64,000 bases of DNA from a virus, in IMG/VR virus record IMGVR_UViG_3300045284_000065, positions 1 to 64,000 of that record; one strand, written 5' to 3'. This document shows, piece by piece, positions 3,305 to 63,409 of the stretch; position 1 is the first letter of the stretch, and each line of letters begins with the position of its first letter. The position numbers and the translations under genes were made by a program. Below the pieces are notes generated by a model. The model was given only the letters and a program-made list of their open reading frames with translations, was not told the DNA's origin and did no database searches.

Positions 3305-3550
3305 CTAATGGGCACTGTCGTCGTCTGGAAAGTCGAGTGTGTCATCCGTCACCAGGCGGAACTGCGAGAGCAGCGAACCCAGCCACGCCTGCCCCTCGGT
3401 GAGTGGAGGCCAGGTGTCACCGCATAGGCAGATATGGGCATCACGGTGCCCAGCCACCCGTGAGCAGAGGTGGTGCCAGATCGTGGTCACCGGCTCGTCC
3501 TCGCTGCTGGGGATCACGGTCTGCCACTCGCAGTCACACTCGCTCATCAT
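3305..3550 (-). CDS. Small Cys/His-rich hypothetical protein
   Basis: CxC...C...H...HxCxC pattern; coupled start. Confidence 0.55.
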   Translation of the reverse strand: MMSECDCEWQTVIPSSEDEPVTTIWHHLCSRVAGHRDAHICLCGDTWPPLTEGQAWLGSLLSQFRLVTDDTLDFPDDDSAH

Positions 3551-3612
3551 CGCCGCACCACCGATACGAAGCAGACCACGATGAACGCCATGCATCCGAT
3601 GCCGAACCACAT
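3547..3612 (-). CDS. 21-aa hydrophobic micro-peptide (MWFGIGCMAFIVVCFVSVVRR)
   Basis: Fills the gap exactly, with TGATG and ATGA overlaps on either side. Confidence 0.45.
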   Translation of the reverse strand: MWFGIGCMAFIVVCFVSVVRR

Positions 3613-3761
3613 CACGCACGCTCCGCGTTGTACTCGGCACAGCGCTCGCGCGCCTCGTCCTCGAAAGCGAAGGCGTCGATGACCTCGCCGTCCAACAGAA
3701 TCAACCAGGGCACCTGGTAGCTCTCGTCGTACTTGACCACGTACTCAACTGCGCTGCTCAT
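3612..3761 (-). CDS. Small hypothetical protein (49 aa)
   Basis: MSSAVEYVVKYDESYQVPW..., read by hand; good codon usage. Confidence 0.6.
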   Translation of the reverse strand: MSSAVEYVVKYDESYQVPWLILLDGEVIDAFAFEDEARERCAEYNAERA

Positions 3762-3764
3762 GGC

Positions 3765-4430
3765 TCACCACCCCCACCAGGGAGTGTTGCGCTCTTGGTC
3801 GCGCACACGGCGGCACTCGGACTGGCACCACGAACCCTGCCACTGGCTGCGCTGGCCGTAGCGACGGTGCAGCGTGGTCATCTCGGGCAGGTTGTCCGGG
3901 CTGATGTGCGGCCAAATGTCGTGCCAGACCACATGCCAGCGGGTTCCCTTGGGCCACTTGATCGTCATCGCGTCTCCCTGGTGGATGGTGACCCGGTCGC
4001 CGTACTCCTGCACGAACCAGGCACCGATGGTGTCGATGATGCGCTGGTCGCTCTCGACCACGTCAACGTGAGTGAGCACGTCCAGCATCGCGCCGACCAC
4101 GCAGCCCATGCCCAGCCCATTGACCAGTCCGGTGGCCTCGGGGAGGTTGGTGCCGTACAGGTCGGAGGCTGCGACGGCCAGGAGGTGATCGTGGCGCTCT
4201 GCGGTGGTGTCACTCATCCACAGTGTGTCATCCACCACCAGCTTGGCGTACTCACCCGGAGCGCAGCCACGGCCGTGCATGGCGTATTCCAGGCTCGCCA
4301 TGAAGGTGCCGAACGACTCGTTCGGCCCTCCCACCGTGAAGCGTGCGACGCGCACGCCGTTGGTGTCGAACTCCGGGCCTCGGTAGGCCAGGCGCTCCAT
4401 CCGGTTCATCGTTGGTGCGGTGGTGGTCAT
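3765..4430 (-). CDS. Class I SAM-dependent transferase (spermidine synthase-like)
   Basis: VNGLGMG motif I, VDVVE acidic motif II, IHQGDA, WHVVWHDIW. Confidence 0.75.
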   Translation of the reverse strand: MTTTAPTMNRMERLAYRGPEFDTNGVRVARFTVGGPNESFGTFMASLEYAMHGRGCAPGEYAKLVVDDTLWMSDTTAERHDHLLAVAASDLYGTNLPEATGLVNGLGMGCVVGAMLDVLTHVDVVESDQRIIDTIGAWFVQEYGDRVTIHQGDAMTIKWPKGTRWHVVWHDIWPHISPDNLPEMTTLHRRYGQRSQWQGSWCQSECRRVRDQERNTPWWGW

Positions 4431-4621
4431 GACGCCCCTCCTGAGGTGTCGGGTGTGTCATTCGACACAACATTGTCGGGGAGTGGGAACGTCCAGCCCT
4501 TGGCAGCGTGTGCATCGCTGCACACTCGGCAATCCGGGTTGCGGGGCTGTTTGAGGATGATGCCCGTGACGGGCAGGCCACACAGGGTGGCCTGCCCGTC
4601 GTTGGAGAAGTGGCTCATCAC
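4427..4621 (-). CDS. Small zinc-binding hypothetical protein
   Basis: H...LCG...CRVC. Confidence 0.6.
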   Translation of the reverse strand: MMSHFSNDGQATLCGLPVTGIILKQPRNPDCRVCSDAHAAKGWTFPLPDNVVSNDTPDTSGGAS

Positions 4622-5424
4622 GCCGCCTTGCCCTTGCCCTTCTTGGCAGCGTCGATGGAGGCCTGGAAGGCGTCCATCAGGTTGTCGATGGCAGCGGGTG
4701 CCTGGACGGTCGCCTTGGGAGCGCCACCGGCCTTGGAGTCCACGTACGCCTGCACCACCGGAGCGGTGTCGTCGGTGACGATCGGAGCATCGATGCCGAT
4801 CGCTTCGATCAGGCTGGTCGCCATGCCGACCTCGGTCTTGGTGAACCGGAAGTCGTCATCCAGCGGGATGGGCTTGCGGATGGCATCGGCGGTGAGCACC
4901 ATGAGCAGGTCACCCTCGTAGGTGAGGATGGCGTACCGGGCCGGTCCACGCATCGCCAGCTGCAGGAGAGCGCCCACTTTGAGCGACTTCATCCCGGCGA
5001 ACAGGAGCGCGAGCGCCTGGGTGGCGGGGCGGCTGGGCTTGCCCTTCTCGACCTTGGGGCGCACCTGGTACAGCTTCTCGGTGAGGTACTGACCGAAGTC
5101 CTTCACCGGCACGAAGCTGATGATTTCCGCCACGCCCTTGGGGGACGTGCAGGCGGCAATCTCGTCGTCGTCCAGTGCGACCCAGGAGCCGTTGGTGGCC
5201 TGCGCCATGCGGACCACGTCGGTCTGATGGACGACCTGCTCGGTGTCCTTGCGGATCGGCGCACGGCCGATCGGGACGTTGGGGTCGCCGTTGTAGAACT
5301 CCTTGCGGACGACTCGCGTCTCTTCGGTGGCCGTGTACACGCCCAGCTGGATGTTGAGCATCCCAGCGGAGACGGTGATGCTGGTGGTCGCCCGGGTGGG
5401 CATTCCAGCGAGGGAGGTGAACAT
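4618..5424 (-). CDS. ku: Ku-like DNA end-binding protein
   Basis: N-terminal RATTSITVSAGMLNIQLGVYTATEE and C-terminal NLMDAFQASI match prokaryotic Ku; RBS GAAGGA. Confidence 0.8.
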   Translation of the reverse strand: MFTSLAGMPTRATTSITVSAGMLNIQLGVYTATEETRVVRKEFYNGDPNVPIGRAPIRKDTEQVVHQTDVVRMAQATNGSWVALDDDEIAACTSPKGVAEIISFVPVKDFGQYLTEKLYQVRPKVEKGKPSRPATQALALLFAGMKSLKVGALLQLAMRGPARYAILTYEGDLLMVLTADAIRKPIPLDDDFRFTKTEVGMATSLIEAIGIDAPIVTDDTAPVVQAYVDSKAGGAPKATVQAPAAIDNLMDAFQASIDAAKKGKGKAA

Positions 5425-5463
5425 TGGTTGGTCCTTCTTTCGGGTTGTCGGGGACATGCACAT

Positions 5464-5721
5464 TCAATCAGGTGTGGGCACGATTGGGCACTCTTCCCTG
5501 AGGTGTCCAGTGTGATACTCGTCACACACTCGGCACCGGTAGGCGACGAGCTTGCCGATGCGGTAGCGCATCTTGACGGTGCCAGCGTTGTAGGCATCGC
5601 AGAGAGCCTGCGCCGCCTCCTGGGTCAGGGGGCGCTTGGCGCGGCCACGGGTGGTGTAGTGGTCGCGTGGGGCGAACACCGGAGCCACCCGCCCTTCGCG
5701 GGTGGCTCCGATCATGGTCAC
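5464..5721 (-). CDS. Hypothetical protein with YxCxxCxxYHxG motif
   Basis: AYRCRVCDEYHTGH. Confidence 0.65.
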   Translation of the reverse strand: MTMIGATREGRVAPVFAPRDHYTTRGRAKRPLTQEAAQALCDAYNAGTVKMRYRIGKLVAYRCRVCDEYHTGHLREECPIVPTPD

Positions 5722-7040
5722 GGCGTGCCGCCCAGCGCCTGGGCCAACGGATCGTTGGGGTCGGGCATCGGTGCGAACTGCGCCGCCGCCGCCTCGGCGT
5801 TGTAGCGGGCCTGCTTCTCGTCTTCCAGCAGCGATGAGCGGATGGTCTGAGCGTTGAGAATCTCATCCGCCGTGATGCGGTGGCGCTCATCGAACATGCC
5901 CAGGAAGATTTCGAGCGCCATCTCCACGCCGTGGATGCCGATGTTGCGCTGGATGCGCTGCAGCAGGGCCGTGGACACCGGAATGTTGATCTTCCGGTTC
6001 TGATAGGCGGTACGGAACGCCTCGGCCAGGCGGTGCAGGTTCTCGTTCTTGATGAGCGTGTGCTCCACCACGGGGTCGTAGTCCCACAAGATGTGGTCGA
6101 AGCGCTGGTGAAGTGACTTGTTCATCTTCGCCATATCCTCGTATCCCTCGTTGTACGTGGTGATGACCCAGCAGTCTTCGTGCAGCCGCACGAACTCGGC
6201 CATGACCACGCCGCCCTTGACGATCGCCTTGCCACGGTTCGTGAACTCATGGCGGTGGTCGAGCACCGGGTTGAGGCTGATGGCGTAGCGGGGCGGGATG
6301 GCGTTGATCTCGTCCACGTAGAGGATGCCCCCGGTCTGCGCCCACATCTCGACAGTGCCGGGGAGGTGAACGATGCGATCGCGGCCCGTGCGCTCATCGA
6401 CCATCGACACCGGCTGACCGAAGAAGTCGTAGTCGGTGACACCGGCCGAACCGGACAGGGTGTAGATGGGCATCGGCTTGGGCAGTCCCCGTTCCTCGGA
6501 CAGCTTCTCGGCCAGCTTCTGGACGATGAGCGTCTTGCCCGACTGCGTCGGACCTTTGAGAGCGAACGAGACGGCGTAGCCCTCGTTCTCGCGGCGGTTC
6601 TCGTCACTGGCGTAGGCGAGCAGCGTCTCAATGTCCGACTTGCCGTTCTTCATGGTGCGGCTGATGTACCGGGCGACCTTGCTCCCACGGCCGCACAGCG
6701 GGCGCAGGTGGTCGAGGCGCTTGTCCATCGGGTCGGTGATCGGATCGGTCAGCGATGACTTCGCCACCTGCTGCATCAGCTGCTGGGCGGTCGATGCGTC
6801 GTCACCTGAGGTGTCGAGTGTGTCATCCGACACAGCCTCTTCGACAGGCTCGGGCAGGTCAGCCAGGACACGGGGCAGCACGTAGGCCACGCTGCCATCG
6901 AACTCGACAGTGATCTTGCGGCGGCGCGGATCGGAATCCGGGAACACCTTGCTGGTGATGACGGTGACGGTCTCCCCCATGAGGGGACCCGACACAACCC
7001 GGTACTTGAAACCGGGGAGGAGTGCTTCGGCTGCGGCCAT
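5718..7040 (-). CDS. MoxR/CobS/NorQ-like AAA+ ATPase
   Basis: Walker A GPTQSGKT, Walker B LYVDEIN, sensor TTYN, LHQRF. Confidence 0.85.
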   Translation of the reverse strand: MAAAEALLPGFKYRVVSGPLMGETVTVITSKVFPDSDPRRRKITVEFDGSVAYVLPRVLADLPEPVEEAVSDDTLDTSGDDASTAQQLMQQVAKSSLTDPITDPMDKRLDHLRPLCGRGSKVARYISRTMKNGKSDIETLLAYASDENRRENEGYAVSFALKGPTQSGKTLIVQKLAEKLSEERGLPKPMPIYTLSGSAGVTDYDFFGQPVSMVDERTGRDRIVHLPGTVEMWAQTGGILYVDEINAIPPRYAISLNPVLDHRHEFTNRGKAIVKGGVVMAEFVRLHEDCWVITTYNEGYEDMAKMNKSLHQRFDHILWDYDPVVEHTLIKNENLHRLAEAFRTAYQNRKINIPVSTALLQRIQRNIGIHGVEMALEIFLGMFDERHRITADEILNAQTIRSSLLEDEKQARYNAEAAAAQFAPMPDPNDPLAQALGGTP

Positions 7041-7144
7041 GACGTGCTTCCTTTCGGGAGGCGGTTGGGTTCGGTGAGAGAGACATTACACCCGTGGAGG
7101 GCGGGATCAACACCTGTGGGCAGAAACGTGCAGGAGCAGGGAGG

Positions 7145-7173
7145 TTGCATGCTGGTGCCCACGGGAGTACGAT
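7145..7173 (+). promoter_or_regulatory. Sigma70-type promoter, probably giving a leaderless transcript
   Basis: TTGCAT-N17-TACGAT ending 7 nt before GTG 7181; no RBS. Confidence 0.6.
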
Positions 7174-7180
7174 CCTTCCC

Positions 7181-9250
7181 GTGACCACACAACCCGCACC
7201 CAAGAAGACGCGCAAGCGCCTTCCACCAACCACCGAGATGGGCCGTCAGCTGATGAAGATGGGCCGCGAGAAGATGGCCGAAGAGGCCGCTCGCACCGCT
7301 GAGAGGATGCTCAACGAGCGCACCCAGCGCGAGGAAGCAGAGCTTGCTCTCCACAACCGCAGCCGCAACGTGTCCACCGCCGCCGCCGTGTCGCGAGGAC
7401 TGCTCGGCAGCATCGTTGGCTCACTCGCATCGGAGGACATAACCCCGTACATCGATGTGCAGCCGGTCGAACTGTTCAGCAGCCTGGAAGCGTGGACCGA
7501 CTTCCATCAGATCCACATTCGCTACCACCAGGACCCTGATCCCCGGATCATGGCGGCGGTGCTGCGTGGCCTGATGTACCACGAAGGTGGTCACATTCGG
7601 TGGACGATCCCGTTCGCTGAACTGCGAGAGATGGCGGGCGTATCTGCTCAGGGGACGGGCGAAGAGATGCGCCGCCTGCAGCGGGCCTGGAACGCTCTAG
7701 AGGATCAGCGCATGGAGACGGCAGTCGTCAGCGACTCACCGAACAAGGCTGGGTTCTTCGTCCCGATGGTGATGATGGAACTGCTCAACACGGTCGACAA
7801 GGCGACGATGAACTACCCGCTGCTGGTGTGGCGTCGGTACCTGCCGAAGCACATTCGCGACGCCTGCCGCGCCGCCTTCGTGGCGTTCCAGGGTGGCGAC
7901 GAGCACCTGACCCTGCAGATCGAACAGTGCGTGGACGACTACGTGAAGGCGACCACGGCCTGGCAGATGTGGGCAGCCGTGTGCTGGTTCGCTGAACTGA
8001 CCAACCTGCTGCAGATGACCCTGCCCCAGGCAGCCGAGACTCACTCCAAGCAGAAGTCAACGCGCCAGGGCGCTGATGGCGAGACGCAGCAGAGTGGTCC
8101 CGCCCCGGCCGAGAAGATGGAGATTCCCATCGACCCGACCCAGGACGCCAGCCCAGCCGGTGGTGGCGACGAGGACGAGCAGCCCGCCGAAGAGGCCGGT
8201 GGCGAGGCCGGTGGCGAGCAGGAAGGCGAAGGCGAGAGCGCCGCAGCGGGCGGCGAGGGTGGCGAGGAAGGCGACGGCGAGGGTGGTGACGAGGGTGCTG
8301 GCGACAGCCCCGACAGCGACGCCACCAGCGGCGAGAGCACGCAGGGAGCAGAGGGCAGCGGTGCCGGTGCTCGCAGCGAGGATGAGGCCAACCATGACCC
8401 GCTCTCCCAGGAGATGCTGAACGAGGCGATGGCCCAGGCAGAGGATGACCGGTACAACAGCCGCTCGCTGGATGCCGACGTGGACGCCTTCAACGACGCC
8501 CTGGATCGCCGCGGCTCCAAGCTGGGTGCGTACACGCTGCACCCCGAAGAGGACGTGGATCGCCTCATCGCCGCCGACGCGCTGGCTGATGACCTGGTCG
8601 GCTCGTTCAACCAGGCGACGATGGATCGCATCCCCTCCTGGGTCGAAGGACAGCGCTCGGGCCGACTGAACGTGGGCCGGTACATGACCCGCCAGCCGGG
8701 TGACATGGAGTACTTCACGCAGTGGATGGACGACGACGTGCCCGGCTACAACCTGGCCGTGTCGGTCCTGCTCGACTACAGCGGTTCCATGAGCCGCAGC
8801 GCCCAGGACTTGGCCCAGGCGGGCTACGCCGTCAAGACGGCCTGCCAGCGCCTCGACATTCCCTGCACCGTGGTGCTGTGGGATGACGACGCCAAGGTGC
8901 TGTGGGATGGCGAGGAAGAGGCCGACATGCTGCCCCGCATCGTCTGCACCGGCAACACCGACCCGACCTGGGCGCTCGCTGACCTGGACAACCAGCGGTT
9001 CAACAAGGTGCGCCACCTGGTGCTCATCATGACCGATGGCGTGTGGTCGGGCTATGGCGACCGGACCCTCGCCCCGTACTGCATCGACGGGCGCATGATG
9101 ATGGGCATCGGCTACGCCCTGGACGACGAGAAGAAGGCGCAGGGCCGTACGGCCAAGCTGATCGGCTACGGCTGCCCGGACGCCTTCCCGATCACCAACC
9201 TGCAGGAACTGCCCTGGCTCCTGGAGGAGTACCTCATCCGCATGGCCTGA
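7181..9250 (+). CDS. CobT-like VWA protein with HEXXH domain and acidic linker
   Basis: YHEGGH, NALEDQRME, long G/E/D linker, MIDAS LLDYSGSM, IMTDG. Confidence 0.85.
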   Translation: MTTQPAPKKTRKRLPPTTEMGRQLMKMGREKMAEEAARTAERMLNERTQREEAELALHNRSRNVSTAAAVSRGLLGSIVGSLASEDITPYIDVQPVELFSSLEAWTDFHQIHIRYHQDPDPRIMAAVLRGLMYHEGGHIRWTIPFAELREMAGVSAQGTGEEMRRLQRAWNALEDQRMETAVVSDSPNKAGFFVPMVMMELLNTVDKATMNYPLLVWRRYLPKHIRDACRAAFVAFQGGDEHLTLQIEQCVDDYVKATTAWQMWAAVCWFAELTNLLQMTLPQAAETHSKQKSTRQGADGETQQSGPAPAEKMEIPIDPTQDASPAGGGDEDEQPAEEAGGEAGGEQEGEGESAAAGGEGGEEGDGEGGDEGAGDSPDSDATSGESTQGAEGSGAGARSEDEANHDPLSQEMLNEAMAQAEDDRYNSRSLDADVDAFNDALDRRGSKLGAYTLHPEEDVDRLIAADALADDLVGSFNQATMDRIPSWVEGQRSGRLNVGRYMTRQPGDMEYFTQWMDDDVPGYNLAVSVLLDYSGSMSRSAQDLAQAGYAVKTACQRLDIPCTVVLWDDDAKVLWDGEEEADMLPRIVCTGNTDPTWALADLDNQRFNKVRHLVLIMTDGVWSGYGDRTLAPYCIDGRMMMGIGYALDDEKKAQGRTAKLIGYGCPDAFPITNLQELPWLLEEYLIRMA

Positions 9251-9274
9251 GTGGCCCACTGGATATGGCGATAT

Positions 9275-9317
9275 GCCCCCCGACCTTCCCCCCGCGAGTG
9301 GAGAAGGTCGGGGGGCA
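9275..9317 (+). terminator. Strong hairpin after VWA gene
   Basis: GCCCCCCGACCTTC...GAAGGTCGGGGGGC 14-bp stem; no U-tract. Confidence 0.5.
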
Positions 9318-9338
9318 TCGTCGCGTACCGTGTGAGCC

Positions 9339-9617
9339 GTGAGCGAGGACCGGATGGAGCAGCACCGCCGCGTGCTGCTGTGGCTCGCAGAGCGTGCCTC
9401 TGACGAACCCCTTGTGCCGTGCGGCACATGCCGTCATGACATTGACGACCACCTGGGTGGCCTGAGCATGTGCATGTTCCCGGCCACCATTGGCGCACCG
9501 GCCCGCCTATGCCGGTGCGAGGTGTTCGATCTATCGACGGAGCAGGATGACGACGAGGATGATGACGAGCACCAGCAGCAGGAACCCGCCGCCGATGTAG
9601 ATCCCGTCAGCGAGTAG
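9339..9617 (+). CDS. Small Cys/His zinc-binding protein
   Basis: CGTCRH...H...C...CRC; 3' end overlaps an antisense ORF. Confidence 0.5.
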   Translation: MSEDRMEQHRRVLLWLAERASDEPLVPCGTCRHDIDDHLGGLSMCMFPATIGAPARLCRCEVFDLSTEQDDDEDDDEHQQQEPAADVDPVSE

Positions 9618-9629
9618 CGCGGCGAGCAT
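9531..9629 (-). CDS. 32-aa single-TM membrane peptide
   Basis: MLAALLADGIYIGGGFLLLVLVIILVVILLRR; TGATG coupling. Confidence 0.65.
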   Translation of the reverse strand: MLAALLADGIYIGGGFLLLVLVIILVVILLRR

Positions 9630-9835
9630 CAATCCCCCGTGGTGAGAGCGAGCCACCCCAGGGACACGCAGGCGAGGCCAGCGACCACCAGGAGCCAATG
9701 GAACTCCCAGGTGGTGCTCGCGCGTGCCACCACCAGGCGCACGCATTCGATCACGAACAGGATGAAGGCGACCAAGAACATGACCTCGCCGAAACTGTTG
9801 GCAGTCATGATTTCGGCCACTAGGGCTGTCTTCAC
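9629..9835 (-). CDS. Small 2-TM membrane protein
   Basis: AAGGAG RBS; two hydrophobic helices. Confidence 0.7.
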   Translation of the reverse strand: MKTALVAEIMTANSFGEVMFLVAFILFVIECVRLVVARASTTWEFHWLLVVAGLACVSLGWLALTTGD

Positions 9836-9853
9836 GGGATATCTCCTTATGGG

Positions 9854-10768
9854 TTACCGGCCGAAGCCGCGTCCACCCGCATAGGTGCGGACAGGACCAA
9901 GCCTCGACGCACTCGGGCCGATGGCCGGAGGCATTGCTCCAAGGCCAGCGGATGTCGCCGGTCCCGTGCGATTCACGGTGCCACCTCCACCCCATCCGCC
10001 AGTTGTTCCAACGCCTCGACTCAGGCCGAAGGTGCGCTGTGGCTGGGCCGAAAGACTCGACGTAGAGAATCCACCGACCGAACTGCCCGGTGCTGTTCCA
10101 AGGGCCGGAATGGCGGTGCTCGGTGCAGTGGGTGATCCCGATGCCGAGGGGAGCGAGGGCATCTGCAGAGTGGAGCGCGCGGCGCTGTTGGGGGCGAACC
10201 CACCGGTCGGCGCAGCAGGCGTAGCTGCCGCCGCGGCCCGAGGTGCCGGTCGGTAGATCGTCATGTCCTTGGTGTTGTAGAGGCCGGTGGTACCCCGAGG
10301 CACGGCGGCGTTCTCGGGCGTGTCGGTGATCGTCCGCTGCGTCGCCGCCTTGTACTTGGGAGGGACGTAGGCCTTGTTCTTGATGACCGACCCTGTTCCA
10401 AGGGAGGGCTTCAACGTCTCCTTCGCCAGTTCGTACTTGGTGGTGGCGATAGGGGGAGCGCTCGGGCCTCCACCACCTCCACCGCCGCCGCCACCGCCGC
10501 CGCCGCCGCCGCCTCCACCGGAGCCACCACCGCCGCCGCCACCCGAGGAGCCACCGCCACCACCGGAGCTACCCGCCTTGAAGGGCAGCCCCTTGACGAC
10601 GAGCGGGTTGGTGGCGTGCGCCCCACCAGTCCCCCACACACTGCCGACCGTGAGCGTTCCCGTGGAGGGACCACCGCCCTTGGCCTTGTAGTCAGCCTTC
10701 TTGCTGCTGCTGGCAGTCTTCACCTTCGACTTCGCATTGGCGATGTAGGACTTTCCCCAAGAGGACAT
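9854..10768 (-). CDS. Basic Gly/Ser/Thr/Pro-rich low-complexity protein with poly-Gly tract
   Basis: Poly-G run encoded at about 10468-10565; very few acidic residues. Confidence 0.7.
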   Translation of the reverse strand: MSSWGKSYIANAKSKVKTASSSKKADYKAKGGGPSTGTLTVGSVWGTGGAHATNPLVVKGLPFKAGSSGGGGGSSGGGGGGGSGGGGGGGGGGGGGGGGGGPSAPPIATTKYELAKETLKPSLGTGSVIKNKAYVPPKYKAATQRTITDTPENAAVPRGTTGLYNTKDMTIYRPAPRAAAAATPAAPTGGFAPNSAARSTLQMPSLPSASGSPTAPSTAIPALGTAPGSSVGGFSTSSLSAQPQRTFGLSRGVGTTGGWGGGGTVNRTGPATSAGLGAMPPAIGPSASRLGPVRTYAGGRGFGR

Positions 10769-10780
10769 TGTTCCAAGCTC

Positions 10781-11059
10781 CTATCGCTTCGGCTTACCGA
10801 TGGGCTGCCCGCCCTTGCGGTGCTGCAGGAAGTGCTGACTGTGCCGTGACGGTGGGGTCACCGGCTTGCCCGCCTCGCGCCATCGCGGTCGGGGATCAGT
10901 TCCAAGCGTGGGCATGCACACAGCTGGGTGCATGCCACCAGCAGTGACGTGAGCGCCCTTCTCACCTGGGTCGCAGATGCCGCCGCCGCGGACGACGTTG
11001 AGCGGCTGAACAGGACGCCGCTTGGGGTCGTTGCCCCGATCGGGAGGGGATCCCTTCAC
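10781..11059 (-). CDS. Basic hypothetical protein
   Basis: ORF track; fits gene order. Confidence 0.5.
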   Translation of the reverse strand: MKGSPPDRGNDPKRRPVQPLNVVRGGGICDPGEKGAHVTAGGMHPAVCMPTLGTDPRPRWREAGKPVTPPSRHSQHFLQHRKGGQPIGKPKR

Positions 11060-11175
11060 AGCGCGCAGATTATCACCCGATGTTGTTCCAAGCAGGTGTT
11101 GCTGGACGCAATGTGTTACTTGATGGCGGTATGCTTAAACCACCACCAGTCACCACAAACCAAGGACCAACCGCC

Positions 11176-11826: not shown

Positions 11827-11879
11827 GTCATCAGATACCCTGTGACGGGTAACACACCACCCGCCCACTGAGGAGTGTC

Positions 11880-12329
11880 ATGGCTGAGAAGCTCAAAGAG
11901 TTCGACTTCGCGTCGTCTAGCCCGCGTCGAACCGATGGGAGCTACACCTACCCCTGGGATGACTGGTTCGACGGGGACATCTGGAAGCTCGACCAAGGGG
12001 TCGACTTCCCCGGTCACCCGCTGATGATGGAGCGCATCATCCGCACGCGTGCGACCAACCGCGACGCCAAGGTCAAGCTGCGCCACCTCGACAGCGACGT
12101 GATCTGCAAGAAGTGCGGACAACCCGGGCCGGGGTCGCTGGTCATCCAGCGCTACGACATTGTCGGTCCCAGCGAGGCCAAGAAGGCTGCGACCAAGGCG
12201 AAGCGCGCGGCCACCCGTGAAGCCGCCGCACCCAAGGTCGAGACGGCCAACGGTGACGATGCACCGGTCAACGGCAAGCTCGTCCACGCTCGCCGCGTCA
12301 AGCCGAAGCGCGTCGTCGCCAAGGCCTGA
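11880..12329 (+). CDS. Hypothetical protein with YPWDDWFDG motif and Lys/Ala-rich tail (possible DNA binding)
   Basis: GAGGAG RBS; histone-like AKKAATKAKR tail. Confidence 0.75.
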   Translation: MAEKLKEFDFASSSPRRTDGSYTYPWDDWFDGDIWKLDQGVDFPGHPLMMERIIRTRATNRDAKVKLRHLDSDVICKKCGQPGPGSLVIQRYDIVGPSEAKKAATKAKRAATREAAAPKVETANGDDAPVNGKLVHARRVKPKRVVAKA

Positions 12330-50729: not shown

Positions 50730-50812
50730 GGATGAGAACCCTATCGGATCTCAACACGGGATGCAACCAACAACTTGTGATTTCTTCGTTGAGGTGTGCT
50801 AGACCCATAGAC

Positions 50813-56500: not shown

Positions 56501-59500
56501 GTTGGCGATGCGCCCACCGAACCAAGAGGTGTCACCCTCGGTCGCACCGATCCAGAACGGCCCGTTGCCCTGCACCAGACCCGAGGTGGGGTAGTTGGTC
56601 ACGATCGGCTGGCCGATAGCGACCCAGCTGTCGCCGTAGTCGAGCGTCTCGAAGAGGCGCAGGCTCTGCTGATTGGGCACCGTCATGTCCACTGCCAGCC
56701 TGAGGTAGCGGTACTCCCCATTGACCGGGCCAGCGATGGGCCGGGTGGTCGAGGTGTATTCGATGGAGCCAGACGAGTTGGTCCAGGTGAACAGCAACTC
56801 ACCGTTGGGCGACAGGCGCACCAGGTAGGAGTGGTTGTTGCCCGCCGACCAGCGTCCGAAGAGAGTCTGAGCCGGTCCCTCGGAGTGGGATGTCGGCGGG
56901 TCCTCCGAGTCCACTACCAGCTGACCGGTCCAGCGATCGGCGGCGAGTCGGATGTCGATGGTCATCGACCCGGCGATGGCAGGGAAGCCGCCAGCCGGGA
57001 CGGTGGCGTAGTTGCCGAGGGTCCCGGGGAAGTAGAGGTAGCCGGGGTTGGGCGATGTCTCGATGGCGGTCTGCGTCTTCACGATGGTGACGGTCTGACC
57101 GGTCACGGCCTTGAAGCTGGTCGCCGCTGGGTCGATGGCCAAGCAGGTCTGGTCGATCAGCAGCGCCTCAGTGTTCTGGATCGGCACGCCACCCGGATCG
57201 AACGAAGTGCGGAACGAGACGTTGCTGATCGCCCCGTCGAAGAAGTTGCCGATGACCAGCGTCGCTATCGAAGCGAACATTGGACCGGAGGTGGGCGTCT
57301 CGGAGAGTCGGGTCCAGGTCCGGTTGTCATCGGAGGTCCAGAAGCGGACGTAGTTGCTGGTTCCGGCCTCGAAGGAGACGGCCACCCGCTTGGCTGCCTG
57401 GGCCTGCAGCCCCAGCGCCGGGGACTCCACGACGTTGTCGTAGTTGTTGCCGTTCGATGACCAGTAGAACAGCAGGGTCCCCCGGCTGGAGAGCAGGAAG
57501 GACCAGCCGACGAGGCCAGCGCTGCCCGACTTGGTCATGATCGCCCGGTTGCGCCGCGGCGGCGTCCAGTCGTTGGCGATCAGGCGGGCCTCCACCACGA
57601 ACGAGGTGTTGTCCTGGAAGGCCGTCTCGTTGGGGACAGTGAGGAAGTTGCTCTCGGTCCCCGGCAGCACGATGTAGCCGAAGTCGACCGGGACGTAGTC
57701 ACGCCGCACCGTCGCCGTGCCACCCTGCAGAGCGAGCGTGCCAGCCTGAGGGTTGGCCGGGATGTGCTCGGAGGCCAGGCGCAGCATCTCCAGGGAGGTC
57801 GACTGAGTCGACCCGTAGATGGACAGCCCGTAGAGACGCCCGTCGTACTGCGCCCCGATGACCAGTGGCGATGTCGAGTTGAAGACGGTGCCAGTCAGGC
57901 CACTCTGGCGCGTCCCCAGCGGTGCCCAGGTGACGCCGCTGTCGGGGGAGAGCCAGAAGTCCACGACCCGGACACCGCCGACGATGTCAGTGTCGATCCG
58001 CACCACCTGGCGGCTGGTGCTCGCTGGCACCGGCTGGGTGCAGGTCAGCGTGTAGAAGACCGTGCCGTCGATGGAGTAGAGGAACTGCAGACACCCGTTG
58101 ATGTCCATCATCACGGCGTAGCCACGCTGGCCCGCCGCTGCCCACTTCGAGATGATGGTCTGAGCGGTGTAGGGCAGCCAGGAGCGCGGGAGGATGCCGA
58201 AGACGAATGAGGTGGGGCCGGTGATCTCCAGGGTCGCAGCGTCGGCAATCACCAGGTCGTTGCCGAGCGTCCCGGGGAACAGGATGTAGCCGGTGCCCTT
58301 CGGTGCCGGGTTGCGGTAGACGGTGATGGCCTGGCCGGTCGCCGCTGTCAGAGCAGTGCTGGTCGATGTGACGGCGTTTCCCTGAGCGTCGTTGATGAAG
58401 TTGTCGGCGTTGAGGCCAAACACCTCGGTGCCCTCCACCGGCAGCGCTCCGGTCCCCGTGCGGATAGAGACATATCCAATGTCCCCGTCGATCGACGGCC
58501 CAGTGGGGACCGACCCCGAGGTCCAGCCCGAGCCGATCCGCAGCGGGTTAGTGCTGTTGCCGATCGCAGAAGCACCCACGGTGACGCTGAAGCTCGCCGT
58601 CCACGACGCTGCCGCAGGAGGGGTGAGGCTGTCGGTCAGCGAGTACCACACCTTGTGGTTCACCACCCCGGTGGGGTCGTAGAAGATGCTGTACCAGACC
58701 CACTGCTCGTTGGCGTCGATGGTGGTGCGGCTAGTAGCCCTGAAGTAGGAGGAGTCGTTGGGACCCCAGGAGAACAACAGGCCATATGGGCCAGTCACCA
58801 CCCGATAGACCAACCCCTTGCCGACCGGGACGCTGAAGTGGTTGGGCACCGTGTCCCGCTGACGCATCCGCAGGATGATGTACATCGGCGTGATCACGTC
58901 GAGAGCGGTGGCGTCGGGCGTCTCCATGTAGTTGCCGGTCGTGCCGGGGAAGGTGGCGTACCCCTGCCCGATCGCCTTGGGCGTGCGGACGACGGTCACG
59001 ACGGTGTTGACCGGCCCCACCGAGGGAGCGAATGACGTGGCATCGGGGACCACCCCAGCCAGGTCCTGATTCCCGTCGAAACGAATCGCCTCGACGCCGC
59101 TGTCCGCTTCGGACATGTAGTACACGCGCCCGACGAAGGGAGAGAGGCCGCTCGTCGTGTTGTTGCCGATGAGTACCTGGCCCGACTGGGTGAGCAGAGG
59201 GGTGGTCCCGGCATTGGCCCCGGTGACCGGGGTCCCCAGCTGGATCCAGGTGGCCTTCAGCGGGTCGATCTCGTTGTCGAAGGAGTACCAGTAGGTGCAG
59301 ACCGCCGAGGAGATCACGACCTGGCCCCGGATCCAGATGTCCTTGTCGATGGCGATGCCGGGGATATCAGCGTTGGCAGCGACGCCACCGATCGGTGCCA
59401 CCGAGGTGTTGAGGACGCCGACAACAGGCCGGTTGGTGGACTGGATGCTGAGATAGGCGTGGGTGCTGTTCCACCCGCAGATCGGTCGGTTCAGGCTGCT

Positions 59501-59644
59501 CAGAGCACTGAAGCGGACCCGCACGGTGAACTGGAGCGAAGTGGGTGGCGACGCCAGGTTGGCGCGATCGATCCTCGCGTAGTTGCCGACCTGACCTGGG
59601 AAGTACAGGTAGCCGGGAGCGTCGACAGGGAAGGCGAGAGGCAT
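53504..59644 (-). CDS. 2046-aa baseplate wedge/tail protein: six LamG-like repeats plus P2 gpI-like domain
   Basis: Six GY.xFPG..GNY-initiated ~210-aa units; LWNALPPYY...LYRGRGT. Confidence 0.75.
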   Translation of the reverse strand: MPLAFPVDAPGYLYFPGQVGNYARIDRANLASPPTSLQFTVRVRFSALSSLNRPICGWNSTHAYLSIQSTNRPVVGVLNTSVAPIGGVAANADIPGIAIDKDIWIRGQVVISSAVCTYWYSFDNEIDPLKATWIQLGTPVTGANAGTTPLLTQSGQVLIGNNTTSGLSPFVGRVYYMSEADSGVEAIRFDGNQDLAGVVPDATSFAPSVGPVNTVVTVVRTPKAIGQGYATFPGTTGNYMETPDATALDVITPMYIILRMRQRDTVPNHFSVPVGKGLVYRVVTGPYGLLFSWGPNDSSYFRATSRTTIDANEQWVWYSIFYDPTGVVNHKVWYSLTDSLTPPAAASWTASFSVTVGASAIGNSTNPLRIGSGWTSGSVPTGPSIDGDIGYVSIRTGTGALPVEGTEVFGLNADNFINDAQGNAVTSTSTALTAATGQAITVYRNPAPKGTGYILFPGTLGNDLVIADAATLEITGPTSFVFGILPRSWLPYTAQTIISKWAAAGQRGYAVMMDINGCLQFLYSIDGTVFYTLTCTQPVPASTSRQVVRIDTDIVGGVRVVDFWLSPDSGVTWAPLGTRQSGLTGTVFNSTSPLVIGAQYDGRLYGLSIYGSTQSTSLEMLRLASEHIPANPQAGTLALQGGTATVRRDYVPVDFGYIVLPGTESNFLTVPNETAFQDNTSFVVEARLIANDWTPPRRNRAIMTKSGSAGLVGWSFLLSSRGTLLFYWSSNGNNYDNVVESPALGLQAQAAKRVAVSFEAGTSNYVRFWTSDDNRTWTRLSETPTSGPMFASIATLVIGNFFDGAISNVSFRTSFDPGGVPIQNTEALLIDQTCLAIDPAATSFKAVTGQTVTIVKTQTAIETSPNPGYLYFPGTLGNYATVPAGGFPAIAGSMTIDIRLAADRWTGQLVVDSEDPPTSHSEGPAQTLFGRWSAGNNHSYLVRLSPNGELLFTWTNSSGSIEYTSTTRPIAGPVNGEYRYLRLAVDMTVPNQQSLRLFETLDYGDSWVAIGQPIVTNYPTSGLVQGNGPFWIGATEGDTSWFGGRIANLRIYNDATNIEMFRMDQESLRVPTATTVFNEQWGKTITLHQSSTPTISGYVSFDGVSGEYCRATVPNLSTVTSDFTLMVRVNFTGKLLTTEQVLVQKWNTTPASKVLNKQLTTNVATITTKDPHKLAVGNAVIVTGVGAPFDGTVTITTVPTTTTFTYAKINANVASTASTGDVTPLGRSFSLRRKGTEFSFHASSDGMTDDINAVLADVWDDDNVDWGWLAITTNYSTTDATVTFFTAPEALTPVGTPLVPLPTDWVAQGDPLVFENVTALYMDTEQVTFGGAEDGTLSMRGWLSNVSITNGIGANNVPGGTEKFGWNINSFAGIAADSGAFTAFTGENVVLEPVGASRTMKVQPSAPGPTSDLEPSLPGPTTTILPSPQGPTTTLVRGEDGPSTVLTPAPVGPVTELSPPSLNRPWWPGTETDDTSKWWDQPAFTVQRVIDTTVSGGDYVRGSTNARTQQTAIRYPTTLPGWTPAGVGKGTLYSQPINYDTIEIEWNVPEQFAISWETPSTLADITWSEVTIIRAAMGYPSTVNDGQAIMRQTKAQLYPTGYRYDATSHEILTPNQFDPHSPETSAATGLTPGRWYYYALFFRVGFDWVRSAIHCCLLPRNHHHAEHLWNALPPYYRYLDDNMRGGANDGDLKRWLQIFGYQFDLTREYAESSLDMYHTDFTPLSLLQRIGENFGVKYEPGLGDYSYRALVGTIGYLYRGRGTVGGMKSLVNAAAKCDCDVTSSPNVLLLPDDSEFMNGTGNWAGIHDLTYPKPTGSGIPASPLSYDRIGFSSGTYGYNPGPTSGKGMMHVYTGPADALADLLITCGDGKQTQIAPDPPLEILPFDVGTPCKPGDVYTFTISCASEFGVGSMQAFLFFFGDGGRPDDFISLAAALGAVTPTVGNWAPTSVSGTVPANGAYVVPAIAVVSRAAGSNTSRSPYVHFSGASLYYVGNSSQVTSDVFVKTLTLTGPAAGHPGGPTDTGAEKIGPLDPGVFDPFFIGEEQE

Positions 59645-61743: not shown

Positions 61744-61751
61744 AGTGACTC

Positions 61752-62213
61752 CTAGAGGGGTGCGGGCGGAACGGCGTCGTGCAGCGCCTCGATGTGACCC
61801 GGCAGGGTCCGACCGAAGAACTCCGACGACGGCAGCGGAATGGTCAACGTGCTCTCGCCGCCCACCGACGAGGACTGGTAGCTGATCTTCACGTCCACTT
61901 CAGCTTCGGGCACACCCGAGGTTTCGATGATGACGTAGCGGATGGAGGCGCGAAGCAGGACGCGCCCATCGGGACCGGTGTTGGCATTGGCCAAGCGCGT
62001 GCGGACGATGGAGGCGGCGTCCTGTCGCTCCAGTTCGTCACGGGGATCGAACAGCGCCGACTGCAGGTCGCACCCGTAGTGGGGCCGGAAGACACGCTCG
62101 CCCTGGTTGGTCATCAGGGCGTCGATCACCTGGCCGCGCACGATCTCGTCGTAGTTGGTGGTGGTGCCGACCTTGCCGCCCTGCACGCGGAAGGGGACCT
62201 GGAGCGCTCTCAT
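61752..62213 (-). CDS. gp25/GpW-like baseplate protein
   Basis: LMTNQGERVFRPHYGCDL. Confidence 0.9.
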   Translation of the reverse strand: MRALQVPFRVQGGKVGTTTNYDEIVRGQVIDALMTNQGERVFRPHYGCDLQSALFDPRDELERQDAASIVRTRLANANTGPDGRVLLRASIRYVIIETSGVPEAEVDVKISYQSSSVGGESTLTIPLPSSEFFGRTLPGHIEALHDAVPPAPL

Positions 62214-63409
62214 ACCAGGCCTCGCAGTCGGGGGTTGTTCCAGGAGGAGACCCAGCGCTTGTTCTCGTCCAGGCTCAACGAGGGGCGTCCCTGGGGCGGG
62301 TCCTGCCGCTCCCAGAAGGGCTTGTAGGGCACCTCGGTGTAGCCAGGAGTGGCCTCTTTGGTCGGCCGGGTGAGGAACAGCATCGTCTGGTACTGCTGAT
62401 CGTTGGCGTTGTGACCAACCGCGCGGACGAACCACTTGCCGTCGCCCTCGGGCTTGAAGTACTTGCTCGACGCCGTGACCACATCGACGCATGACCCCGG
62501 CCAGATGTCGGCATCGCCCCATATGCGCGCCACACCCGACTCGGCCCACCCATCTGCCCTCGTCTGCCAGGCATCGACGTAGACCTGGGCCTCCACCTGG
62601 TCGCGGATCAGCTGGGTCGACTCGAAGACGAACCCGGCGAAGTCACCGTCCTGGGTGATCGTCTGAGCCTCGTTGCCAGTGGTGAAGAAGCCGAACTTGA
62701 TGCCGAGGTTGTTCTTGAGCATCTCGGAGGTGGCCTGGCTGGAGAAGTCGATCAGGGTGCGGTCGGTGGTCCCGACGCCGATGCTGCTCTGGCCCGACAC
62801 CAGGCTGGTGTAGGAACCAGTCTCTCGGTAGGTCTTCAGTGGGTCGATGACCTGGACCACGCCATAGCGGGTGTACACCGACCAGCCGATCCGCTTGGCG
62901 AGGTCAGTGACCATCGTCCAGTCGCTCTCGTCGGTCTGAGCGAGTGCCTCCCATATGTGGGTATGCGATTGCCCTCCCGACCCCAGGCCGCTGTTGTTGA
63001 CCAGATCACTGATCACCCCGGTCGCCGTGCGGTTGACGAAGAAGCGCGGCTTGCCCTCGAACATCACCTTGGAGGGACCGAGGATGCTCATCGTGAACGA
63101 CAACTGGCTGGTCGCCTTCTGCTCGTTGGTGATCTCGGCCACGTAGCCCTGGAACAACTCCGTGCGCGGCGGTGCCCCGTAGTAGAAGGAGATGGGCTGG
63201 TCGATGATGCCATCAGTCGTCGTCAGCGTGGTGGAGATCACCGACAGCGTCGCCCCATCGTGCTGGCCCTCGGACACGATCATCTGCAGTTCCTTGGGCA
63301 CCACGTCGAACGCCGCCCCCTTCAGCTGGGGGCTGAAGACCGGGACCCGGCCGCGCATCGACCGACCACCGGAGCCTCCCGCAGAGGGGTTGAGGTCAGT
63401 CATCGTCAT
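62210..63409 (-). CDS. Baseplate hub (gp27/GpD/gp44-like)
   Basis: QTDESDW...LAKRIG; GDADIWPG...GKWFV. Confidence 0.75.
   Translation of the reverse strand: MTMTDLNPSAGGSGGRSMRGRVPVFSPQLKGAAFDVVPKELQMIVSEGQHDGATLSVISTTLTTTDGIIDQPISFYYGAPPRTELFQGYVAEITNEQKATSQLSFTMSILGPSKVMFEGKPRFFVNRTATGVISDLVNNSGLGSGGQSHTHIWEALAQTDESDWTMVTDLAKRIGWSVYTRYGVVQVIDPLKTYRETGSYTSLVSGQSSIGVGTTDRTLIDFSSQATSEMLKNNLGIKFGFFTTGNEAQTITQDGDFAGFVFESTQLIRDQVEAQVYVDAWQTRADGWAESGVARIWGDADIWPGSCVDVVTASSKYFKPEGDGKWFVRAVGHNANDQQYQTMLFLTRPTKEATPGYTEVPYKPFWERQDPPQGRPSLSLDENKRWVSSWNNPRLRGLV

Follow-up and report, generated by a model that had tools for sequence, protein, structure and literature searches.

Exact ATA-N6-TAT palindromes dispersed along the chromosomes of soil myoviruses: putative docking sites for a dimeric DNA-binding protein

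Invariant palindromes dispersed over a whole phage chromosome have been described since 2015, when a 17-bp dyad repeat, 5'-TGTTCGGNNNCCGAACA, was reported in the Cluster O mycobacteriophages (Corndog and its relatives) in more than 30 invariant palindromic copies genome-wide, about a third of them within genes (Cresawn et al. 2015, PMC4351075). This repeat is absent from host genomes and lies mostly away from promoters (PMC4351075). The phages that carry it have no integrase or parAB, are not obviously temperate, and encode a Ku-like protein and an AAA ATPase (PMC4351075). The authors inferred a dimeric DNA-binding protein with a role other than transcription initiation (PMC4351075). In the literature searched we found no later paper explaining the Cluster O repeats, and searches on the motif string reported below and on dispersed phage palindromes returned nothing specific.

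Several other systems rely on scattered or bipartite sites. The stoperators of Cluster A phages, bound by the L5 gp71 repressor, are asymmetric, oriented with transcription, mostly intergenic and bound by a monomer, and they act in lysogenic silencing. The sopC sites of N15 and the KorB OB sites of RK2 comprise 13-16 contiguous bases and are few, on plasmids or plasmid-prophages. A format of 3+N6+3 is found in the recognition sites of BcgI (CGA-N6-TGC), AlfI (GCA-N6-TGC) and BstXI (CCA-N6-TGG). Here we describe a motif, ATA-N6-TAT, in a window of 64,000 nucleotides (the whole stretch of viral DNA analysed, to which all coordinates refer), which is part of a contig designated G000.

Exactness and conservation of the motif

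An initial annotation of the window had listed 28 copies of a palindrome, SATA-N6-TATS, and had estimated that fewer than one copy per 64 kb would occur by chance. All 28 start positions are exact, and dinucleotide shuffles gave a mean of 0.27 copies with a maximum of 3, so that the observation is genuine and the enrichment stronger than first stated. The window contains 28 copies of the core, ATA-N6-TAT, and the full 91,554-bp contig 39, against an expectation of ~0.3; the core is the highest-ranked bipartite trinucleotide pair of the genome (Poisson P=4e-62). Copy number peaks at the expected spacer length, with 39 copies at k=6 and 0-2 at each other k from 0 to 15 (contig), and a codon-preserving null gives the same answer: 26 sites are in CDS, whereas 200 synonymous-codon shuffles averaged 1.54 and never exceeded 5. 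It is the core that is enriched, whereas the S flanks are background; they accompany 39/39 copies, but 88% of the remaining ATA triplets are also preceded by G/C. A preference for T at spacer position 1 (ATAT; 63% versus 25% background) is confined to this lineage and is missing in distant relatives. The specified bases thus amount to 2 x 3 bp only; most lineages show hardly any preference in spacer or flanks, and the flanks are symmetric and without direction.

Enrichment is confined to exact copies. Pooled over eight genomes, exact copies number 241 versus 3 for a reversed control (80-fold), while one-mismatch copies number 424 versus 427 (in the window, 19 versus 15 expected). The four near-copies that the initial annotation had listed therefore carry no evidential weight.

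The phage has no megablast match (20 kb) among deposited phages, and its best polA match among isolated phages is 32%. Its genes include RecA, Ku and SNF2 helicases. Our comparison genomes were taken from IMG/VR together with one GTDB-binned contig; many 115-136-kb ENA relatives, found by protein search, lie outside this comparison. Among these genomes the motif is present throughout an N6 clade of soil myoviruses of roughly 107-118 kb, in which polA identity falls to ~45%, and four complete or near-complete members hold 18-41 sites each versus 0-1 for the reversed control. A sister clade carries ATA-N4/N5-TAT instead (28+26 sites in 110 kb), and two sister lineages (G008; G009/G016) are without the motif. 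An enriched ATACCG hexamer in G008 was rejected as a DNA motif, being a codon/peptide effect in repeat-rich fibre genes.

Conservation in relatives, which the initial annotation had proposed as a check, is strong: at 82% DNA identity 20 of 23 aligned sites are kept, and substitutions affect 3.6% of core, 11.6% of spacer and 22.3% of flank positions (Fisher P=5e-8), a pattern of purifying selection on the core triplets. The conservation footprint measures ~16 bp, reaching into spacer and flanks, as expected for a bound protein. Over longer distances the positions of sites turn over across orthologues while their number is maintained, and some sites arose by synonymous and amino-acid changes relative to orthologues. 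The sequencing data listed for the phage are Logan contigs (assembled contigs) of three soil metagenomes; two of these, when compared, are identical in sequence, with no variant in any core; a contig that starts exactly on a site (L029) is a single case and is treated as chance. Across 276 sites there was no complementary covariation between flanks and spacer, which argues against a hairpin and favours a duplex read from both sides.

In five actinobacterial genomes, which carry related capsid genes and may not include the host of the phage, we counted 7-94 sites per 5-12 Mb (~3 per Mb), equal to the control. The density in the phage is roughly 130 times that of Streptomyces-type chromosomes, and given the ~3 sites per Mb in Streptomyces-like genomes the motif appears to tag phage DNA.

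Distribution of sites along the chromosome

The sites of the window are as follows; being symmetric they are listed without strand, the sign in brackets is the strand of the gene, and kept or lost describes the state in the relatives named.

3424-3435: ATA-N6-TAT site ATAGGCAGATAT, in a weakly called small ORF, 3305-3550; kept in G002
6133-6144: site within the AAA_5 ATPase gene 5718-7040 (-); kept in G002; orthologous position in G007
9263-9274: non-coding site, 12 nt past the stop of gene 7181-9250 (+); kept in G002
9839-9850: site 3 nt ahead of the GTG of 9629-9835 (-), its spacer containing the Shine-Dalgarno AAGGAG
12374-12385: one of a pair of sites in the convergent gap that follows gene 11880-12329 (+); kept in G002
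12428-12439: other member of this pair, at a distance of 54 bp; a single core change has removed it in G002
13407-13418: site in gene 12529-13902 (-); lost in G002; orthologous position occupied in G004
13639-13650: site in gene 12529-13902 (-); kept in G002
15177-15188: site in gene 14951-16156 (-); kept in G002 with 4 spacer changes; present in G005
16243-16254: site in gene 16158-16616 (-); kept in G002; present in G005
18813-18824: site 3 nt ahead of the ATG of 18558-18809 (-), its spacer containing the Shine-Dalgarno AAGGAG; kept in G002
21672-21683: site upstream of the GH25/PG-binding lysin gene 19731-21467 (-), within a gap of 301 bp
26720-26731: site in the 1866-aa gene 26457-32057 (-)
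31009-31020: site in the same 1866-aa gene 26457-32057 (-)
32856-32867: site in gene 32508-33017 (-); kept in G001 and G002
33593-33604: site in gene 33429-34418 (-); kept in G001 and G002; same context in L022, L026 and L038
37004-37015: site within the gene for family A DNA polymerase, 36806-38797 (-); G001 and G002 keep it with a changed spacer; absent from G004-G009
39918-39929: site inside the MerR-like gene, 39580-40023 (-); G001 and G002 keep it; present in G005
42884-42895: site within the gene for an SNF2 helicase, 41597-43150 (-); G001 and G002 keep it
44343-44354: site within the gene for a DnaG-type primase, 43836-44771 (-); lost in G001 and G002; G004 and G006 have a site at the orthologous position
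44541-44552: second site in the primase gene 43836-44771 (-); kept in G001 and G002
47993-48004: site over a gene junction, its end overlapped by the ATG of 47767-47994 (-)
50807-50818: one of a pair of sites in a divergent gap of 364 bp, 50711-51076; TTGTGA 24 nt upstream on the + strand
50927-50938: other member of this pair, at a distance of 120 bp; G001 and G002 keep it
53359-53370: site in gene 52032-53507 (-); kept in G001 and G002
56351-56362: site in the 2046-aa gene 53504-59644 (-); kept in G001
58464-58475: site in the same 2046-aa gene 53504-59644 (-); kept in G001
62953-62964: site in the baseplate-cluster gene 62210-63409 (-); kept in G001; orthologous in G004, G005 and G006 as ATACCCACCTAT

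Of the 39 sites of the contig, 25 lie wholly within coding sequence (46-64% across genomes, at all relative positions in the gene), and they occur in all three phases (8/7/10) of genes for unrelated proteins. Non-coding DNA is nevertheless favoured, since 36-54% of sites are not fully in coding sequence versus 7-12% of the DNA. Some of these sites accommodate translation signals, and the arrangement with the Shine-Dalgarno sequence in the spacer before 9629-9835 recurs before its orthologue in G006 (77577). The use of rare codons, pointed out in the initial annotation, is confirmed: 53% of the codons touched by a core are rare versus 6.5% overall, and 14 of the 43 ATA codons of the contig fall in sites.

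On average there is one site about every 2 kb of chromosome. The spacing had been described as quasi-periodic; its evenness stands, but a true period does not, as the best Rayleigh periods, 1020 and 2980 bp, have P=0.24-0.32. The sites are spread more evenly than a Poisson process would place them (CV 0.59 and a longest gap of 5,048 bp, both with P about 2e-4), yet without a period. In six dense genomes from both spacer clades CVs are 0.46-0.70 and evenness significantly exceeds Poisson, and in five of these genomes the longest gap is 3.7-5.8 kb; genes of 5.6-6.1 kb contain one or two internal sites apiece. In the sparse lineages G004-G007 spacing is Poisson-like or clustered, and the long non-coding stretches of G005 and G007 hold clusters of sites.

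Proposed docking sites and alternative explanations

On balance we favour, with moderate confidence, a reading in which the motif forms a lattice of docking sites for a putative dimeric DNA-binding protein. The basis for it is the purifying selection on the triplets, the family-wide conservation, the lack of hairpin covariation, the enrichment in non-coding DNA and the lineage-specific changes of spacer and flanks. The proposal in the initial annotation of a dimeric protein acting chromosome-wide thus remains the best reading, in which the protein and its binding are what we infer from the sites.

According to this model, ATA-N6-TAT would be a high-specificity double-stranded DNA docking site for a symmetric, most likely homodimeric protein, probably encoded by the phage, each half of which would read one ATA triplet, the triplet centres being 9 bp apart, near one helical turn. 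As ATA and TAT are rare in these GC-rich genomes, the site is far denser in the phage and could serve as an address tag, which would restrict the protein to phage DNA, over its full length. Sites would be placed at least cost, at gene junctions, the free spacer often accommodating the ribosome-binding site; in regions distant from any junction they would be put inside genes by means of rare codons, which would keep every part of the chromosome close to a site. The minority of sites that overlap promoters probably regulate them. As to purpose, we lean towards genome-wide transcription control, or protection or compaction of phage DNA in lytic growth. Two roles offered in the initial annotation received no support: stoperator-type lysogenic silencing, as no tyrosine or serine recombinase (Phage_integrase, Resolvase) scored over cut-off in G000 and six relatives, and parS/matS-type partition, as a six-frame search of G000 and six complete or near-complete relatives gave nothing over cut-off for ParB_N (PF02195).

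Phyletic profiling of all G000 and G006 proteins, with G004-G007, G011, G012, G014 and G033 as motif-bearing and G008 and G009 as motif-free genomes, yielded no gene present in all of the former yet absent from all of the latter. Six proteins (g73312, g86657, G006_68846 (= g34399), G006_4179, G006_56692 and G006_80398) were rejected as readers, since they are either structural proteins detectable in G008/G009 via another query or lacking in G000. Of the candidates named in the initial annotation, the MerR-like gene (39580-40023) is conserved in all clades, motif-free relatives included, and its recognition helix reads YSVQS/YSQNS in the N6 clade versus RQPVT in the N4/N5 clade, a difference that does not support it as reader, as both clades use ATA/TAT. 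No homologue of the C2H2 gene could be detected in the remaining genomes searched, although proteins with a C2H2 pattern are encoded close to the MerR-like gene in G006 and also in motif-free G008; the RHH gene is patchily distributed. Judged by distribution, the most interesting of them is the following:

11880-12329 (+): putative candidate reader, 149 aa, with a conserved N-domain and a Lys/Ala-rich basic tail

Every motif-bearing genome has it, those of the N4/N5 clade included, and G008 lacks it, but it also occurs in motif-free G009/G016. It has no Pfam or PHROG match and no PDB sequence match, and its Atlas matches are only unnamed viral clusters. Its AlphaFold model (pLDDT 76.6) gave nothing at E<=0.001 in Foldseek and a top VIA-align Z of 5.4, with an uninformative mixture of winged-helix, SpoVS and Alba rows; the homodimer prediction score, 0.29, was indecisive. 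That no reader gene was found, the differing MerR-like helix and the remoteness of most sites from promoters count against the docking reading. The contig is only ~79% complete by CheckV, and a reader gene could therefore lie off it.

One may speculate, tentatively, that this lytic soil myovirus clade marks its own chromosome with a bipartite ATA tag in an N6 or N4/N5 'dialect', read by a new kind of protein acting within a few kb, the even lattice being selected despite its rare codons as a means of sequence-based self-recognition. Such a tag, if real, would do for a phage with unmodified DNA what base modification does for T4.

Also counting against the docking reading are the all-or-none strictness and the bare 3+N6+3 format, more typical of restriction/modification enzymes than of transcription factors. 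The sites could instead be the recognition sequence of a phage or host methyltransferase, nickase or endonuclease in the style of Type I, Type IIB or interrupted-palindrome Type II systems, and the phage would use the mark or cut in replication, recombination, packaging or self/non-self discrimination. The 80-fold excess of exact copies with none of one-mismatch copies, the free spacer, an even spacing that fits a distance-limited process, and the phage-encoded RecA, Ku and SNF2 helicases are all in keeping with such an enzyme. We nevertheless consider it unlikely. No N6_Mtase, N6_N4_Mtase or Methylase_S (HsdS) domain scored over cut-off when G000 and six complete or near-complete relatives were searched in six frames (PF02384 and PF01420 had no match, PF01555 only 15 bits in one relative), and Pfam scans of ~85 proteins found no methylase-type domain, although the enzyme could still be one of the host. 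Moreover, the sister clade uses N4 and N5 in equal numbers where such enzymes have one fixed spacer, the conservation footprint extends into spacer and flanks, phages normally lose rather than gain host restriction sites, and host-type genomes neither avoid nor enrich the site.

The even spread could also mean that coverage of the chromosome, and not local regulation, is what is selected, the sites being a distance-limited control signal for a DNA-tracking machine such as a Chi-like helicase-nuclease stop, a loading site for a sliding clamp or condensin-like factor, or a ratchet for genome entry or packaging. The evenness beyond Poisson of six dense genomes from both spacer clades, internal sites in genes of 5.6-6.1 kb, turnover of positions at a steady number, and a palindrome readable from either end of a linear genome would all suit this idea. 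Yet Chi is contiguous, asymmetric and enriched in the host, while ATA-N6-TAT is bipartite, symmetric and unenriched in the actinobacteria tested; no ParB/KorB-type clamp domain was found; and spacing in G004-G007 is Poisson-like or clustered. This explanation also overlaps the docking reading and still requires a docking protein. We regard it as rather doubtful.

That the motif is a promoter element for a phage-redirected RNA polymerase, in the manner of a MotA box or a late-promoter box replacing the -35, seems very improbable. A conserved site 3' of the portal gene does lie 15 nt upstream of a -10-like hexamer in G000, G004, G005 and G006, TANNNT is in excess within 20 nt downstream of sites in the sense direction (13 versus 3 expected, with 3 on the opposite side), and five sites of G004 each overlap an early-type promoter, TTGTGA-N17-TACACT/TATCAT. 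However, a -10-like hexamer is near only ~8% of sites, 46-64% of sites are wholly inside genes in all phases, the motif is symmetric with no directional flank, and at the early promoters of G004 the site covers the spacer or the -10, which is the position of a repressor. The view of the initial annotation that these are not ordinary promoter operators thus holds for most sites, which are remote from promoter-like elements, but not for those that overlap promoters. Promoter overlap as in G004 is not a rule in the window, and a generic sigma-70 scan of positions 1-20000 gave 0 promoters.

Finally, that the motif is a by-product of a repeated peptide, codon bias, a mobile element footprint, an RNA/DNA hairpin or chance, for which only the rarity of ATA/TAT speaks, by making any pairing conspicuous, is refuted by the use of three phases in unrelated proteins, the rejection of both codon-shuffle and dinucleotide-shuffle nulls, the absence of the reversed control pattern, and triplets kept by purifying selection without stem covariation.

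Comparison with known systems

The motif makes the question of what dispersed palindromes do testable, as it is minimal (2 x 3 bp) and occurs in a deep and well-sampled clade. Its natural variants (N6, N4/N5, none, ATAT versus ATAC) would allow a reader to be sought by co-variation and provide ready specificity controls; per-site purifying selection, turnover at constant number and even spacing in dense lineages are also new material. If a reader acts at limited distance on phage DNA only, this would be a new way for a virus to discriminate between its own and the host chromosome, and a compact orthogonal pair of DNA tag and reader for GC-rich bacteria.

In its format of two 3-bp halves, a free 6-bp spacer and no mismatch tolerance, the site resembles those of Type I, Type IIB and interrupted Type II enzymes; unlike restriction-modification sites it is accumulated rather than avoided by the phage, and the sister clade takes two spacer lengths. 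Chi is a contiguous word without symmetry, over-represented in the host chromosome and oriented there, whereas the present site is symmetric and bipartite. It shares with ParB and KorB sites the exact scattered palindromes, which in those systems are loading points for one dimeric protein acting at a distance, but only 2 x 3 bp are specified here instead of a contiguous palindrome. Like Cluster A stoperators, the sites are dozens of near-invariant short sequences genome-wide; unlike stoperators they are symmetric, and 46-64% are inside genes. Stoperators are bound by one phage protein, a few of them at an early promoter and the majority elsewhere; here, overlap with early-type promoters is seen in G004 but is not a rule in the window.

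The dyad repeat of Cluster O is the closest published case, and the interpretation given by its authors is a precedent for the docking reading. In both, tens of invariant palindromes lie both between and within genes and mostly off promoters, and the present phage, in which no integrase, resolvase or ParB_N was detected, also encodes Ku and an AAA ATPase. Neither the repeat nor the phage is homologous, however. The Cluster O repeat has contiguous arms (7+3+7) as opposed to the bare 3+6+3 here, and its carriers are siphoviruses of ~70 kb as opposed to myoviruses of ~107-118 kb. Relative to the Cluster O repeat, ATA-N6-TAT spans a deep clade, shifts its spacer length between clades, and is evenly spaced.

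A strict two-triplet signal

The initial annotation reported 28 copies of SATA-N6-TATS in the window. Every one of these is exact, where 0.27 copies would be expected. In the whole contig, ATA-N6-TAT occurs 39 times, and the predicted peak at a spacer of six is sharp, with all other spacer lengths giving 0-2 copies. Among all trinucleotide pairs at spacings of 0-12, ATA...TAT at N6 is an extreme outlier (P=4e-62). The S flanks do not hold as specified bases: a G or C lies on both sides of all 39 copies, yet 88% of other ATA triplets are flanked likewise, which reduces the specified core to 2 x 3 bp.

Coding sequence pays for these sites. When synonymous codons were shuffled within each gene, a mean of 1.5 and a maximum of 5 CDS sites were obtained, against the 26 observed. 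All three reading phases are used (8/7/10), and the proteins in which the sites lie are unrelated. The rare-codon cost noticed at the outset is borne out, since 53% of the codons touching the core are rare compared with 6.5% overall; one third of the contig's ATA codons lie within sites. One-mismatch copies, four of which were listed at the outset, are at background level in the window (19 vs 15 expected). Pooled over eight genomes, one-mismatch copies number 424 for the motif and 427 for the reversed control TAT-N6-ATA, while exact copies in the same genomes number 241 and 3. ATA-N6-TAT is all-or-none: there is a perfect site or no site.

Across ten genomes (276 distinct sites), flank and spacer complementarity was not above that predicted from base frequencies, indicating that the signal is no hairpin but consists of two triplets on duplex DNA with their centres 9 bp apart. 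The central spacer dinucleotide is self-complementary in 59 of the 276 sites, fewer than the 91 expected (z=-4.1), and a perfect full-length palindrome seems, judging by the spacer centre, to be avoided.

The contig (91,554 bp, 64.7% G+C, ~79% complete by CheckV; the window is its first 64 kb) carries nearly all of its genes on the minus strand. The modules recognised by Pfam are one for a contractile tail (sheath, tube, T4-type baseplate, gp25, Baseplate_J), with portal and capsid protein, and one for replication and recombination (family A polymerase, SNF2 helicase, DnaG-type primase, DnaB, RecA, SSB, winged-helix replication initiator); Pfam also finds, in the window, a GH25 lysin. Another gene in the window is:

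32059-32358 (-): SpoVS-family protein (PF04232, E=3e-15), directly downstream of a 1866-aa fibre-like gene

Deposited phages gave no DNA-level match to this phage, whose DNA is contained in soil metagenomes. The best polA match among isolates is 32%, to Streptomyces phages, and capsid relatives occur in chromosomes of Streptomyces, Nonomuraea, Actinomadura and Terracoccus as well as in mis-binned 110-115-kb contigs, so that Streptomyces-like actinomycetes are the lead for its host. Protein search points to 100 or more complete relatives of 110-136 kb. Five actinobacterial genomes of 5-12 Mb that carry related capsid genes hold 7-94 sites each, neither above nor below control; with 0.43 sites per kb, the phage is ~130 times as dense. 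AT-rich tetramers are nearly purged from the 64-kb window (AAAA 0, AATT 0, TTTT 1, TTTA 1, TTAA 2, TAAT 2, TATA 3, where base composition predicts 47-80 copies each), with the same depletion in close relatives; evasion of some host factor or nuclease that seeks out AT is one possible reason.

Distribution, turnover and spacing among related phages

Whole-record counts of ATA-N6-TAT and of the reversed control in related genomes
Genome; class; motif/control; record
G004; motif-bearing; 35/0; 116 kb
G005; motif-bearing; 23/0; 110 kb
G006; motif-bearing; 41/1; 118 kb, terminal repeats
G007; motif-bearing; 18/0; 107 kb
G011; motif-bearing; 24/2
G012; motif-bearing; 26/0
G014; motif-bearing; 35/0
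G008; sister genome, complete; 4/3
G009; sister genome, complete; 0/0
G016, G017; sister genomes; motif 0

A sister clade, comprising the 110-kb contig G033 (stretches L160-L165) and the contigs behind stretches L045, L136 and L137, uses other spacers: G033 has 28 copies of ATA-N4-TAT and 26 of ATA-N5-TAT (0.33 expected for each) and none at N6. A preference for T after ATA (63% vs a background of 25%) is confined, within the N6 clade, to the lineage of the window itself, the spacers of other lineages being at background. These clade-specific spacer lengths and the lineage-specific ATAT preference show that the signal evolves with the phage lineage. The motif-free genome G009 (stretches L108-L113) has another dispersed word, TGTTGTGACA/TGTCACAACA-like, with 67 copies of TGT-N4-ACA against 15 expected; it resembles GTGTTGTGA, the -35 side of early-type promoters in G004.

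Two IMG/VR contigs close to the window phage (87% polA identity, 82% DNA identity over 31-39 kb) hold 16 sites in 36 kb and 20 sites in 48.7 kb, with no control copies. Conservation in related phages was found as anticipated: 20 of the 23 alignable window-lineage sites are kept, often with altered spacers, and one kept site carries four spacer changes. Substitutions affect 3.6% of core, 11.6% of spacer and 22.3% of 20-nt flank positions (P=5e-8), with the low-substitution zone spanning roughly -2 to +13 (a ~16-bp footprint). At ~50% polA identity the orthologous position holds a site for only ~20% of CDS sites, and in two motif-free genomes a site was found at none of 28 tested positions. Sites thus turn over with their number maintained. 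Some were evidently created by synonymous changes to rare codons together with an amino-acid change, as where relatives read ATC CTG CGC TTC and the window phage ATA TTG CGA TAT.

The sites had been called quasi-periodic. No single period is significant in the window's contig, but spacing is more even than random (gap CV 0.59, largest gap 5,048 bp; P ~2e-4 for each against random placement), so that "evenly spread" is the better description. Gap CVs are 0.46-0.70 in G001, G011, G012, G014 and G033 (0.63 in the last); in the sparser genomes G004-G007 spacing is Poisson-like or clustered.

Placement of the sites and search for a cognate protein

Sites not fully within CDS make up 36%-54% of the total, compared with 7-12% of the DNA being non-coding. 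In one of three recurrent classes, represented in orthologous late genes of several genomes and by four to five cases in the window's contig, the free spacer holds the Shine-Dalgarno sequence 3-4 nt before the start codon (ATAC-GGAGG-TAT-cacaATG). In G004 (stretch L087, 60.5-62.3 kb), five consecutive short early-type genes each follow a promoter, TTGTGA-N17-TACACT/TATCAT, whose spacer or -10 carries an overlapping site. Downstream of the portal gene, four genomes have a site with a -10-like hexamer 15 nt further down; overall, a TANNNT hexamer lies in the 20 nt downstream of only ~8% of sites. Long non-coding stretches hold site clusters. In G005, for instance, a 1-kb non-coding stretch (L118, 96.4-97.4 kb) packs four sites into 155 bp, two of them overlapping (ATAGCCGCCTATAGGCGGCTAT), along with related imperfect dyads; it resembles an iteron cluster of the origin or centromere type, and the window's contig has no region matching it.

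A protein that would read the motif was sought by six-frame domain searches of the window's contig and six complete or near-complete relatives, which revealed no tyrosine recombinase, serine recombinase or ParB_N, and by phyletic profiling, in which no gene was confined to motif-bearing genomes. Two genes of the window figure in this search:

11880-12329 (+): conserved 100-aa domain with a Lys/Ala-rich basic tail, on the minority strand
40016-40453 (-): phage protein with two eukaryote-type C2H2 zinc fingers

The MerR-like protein is not supported, being universal, motif-free genomes included, and having a recognition helix that differs between the two motif-bearing clades; the C2H2 and RHH proteins have a patchy distribution. 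C2H2 proteins near the MerR-like gene also occur in G006 and in motif-free G008. The most suggestive candidate, as a lead only, is the product of 11880-12329. Its orphan family comprises 194 proteins, all within this phage group, with a conserved N-domain of the form YPWDxWFDGxIW...HPLMMERIIRTRA and a Lys/Ala/Pro tail resembling that of histone H1; Pfam and PHROG gave no match, and fold comparison nothing clear. Two sites lie just downstream of the gene here, and sites lie just upstream of its counterpart in G004 and G006. A homologue is present in every motif-bearing genome, including G033, and not in G008, yet also in the motif-free G009/G016 lineage. It is also possible that the reader is a host protein, or is encoded on the missing fifth of the contig.

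Possible roles and known systems

Taken together, the symmetry, the footprint, the lack of hairpin covariation, the tendency of sites to lie where they cost little, the overlaps with promoters in a relative and the lineage "dialects" lead us to favour, with some reserve, the view that the sites are docking sites for a symmetric DNA-binding protein co-evolving with the phage. Even coverage combined with turnover suggests that what matters is that no point be more than a few kilobases from a site, pointing to action along the DNA rather than classical operator control. The docked protein might act as a roadblock or in silencing, protect or compact the DNA, or load a tracking factor.

The main rival, that the sites are an enzyme's recognition sequence, would fit the all-or-none specificity and the bare 3+6+3 format. 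However, the six-frame searches of the same seven genomes found no methylase or specificity gene (no N6_Mtase or HsdS, and no N6_N4_Mtase over cut-off), and the sister clade spaces its triplets by both N4 and N5; we consider this explanation unlikely. That the sites serve a factor moving along the DNA, the tracking-machine version, seems to us quite improbable.

Among described systems, none of stoperators, ParB/KorB sites, restriction sites or Chi agrees with the sites in every defining feature that was tested. Of published cases, the ATA-N6-TAT lattice comes closest to the 17-bp dyad repeat found in Cluster O mycobacteriophages. Corndog carries 34 invariant copies of that repeat, one third of which lie within genes; host genomes lack it, it has no tie to promoters and its function is unknown (PMC4351075). 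Cluster O phages have no integrase or parAB, and encode Ku and an AAA ATPase (PMC4351075), a pair which they share with the window phage:

4618-5424 and 5718-7040 (-): adjoining genes for a Ku homologue and an AAA_5 (MoxR-type) ATPase (Pfam)
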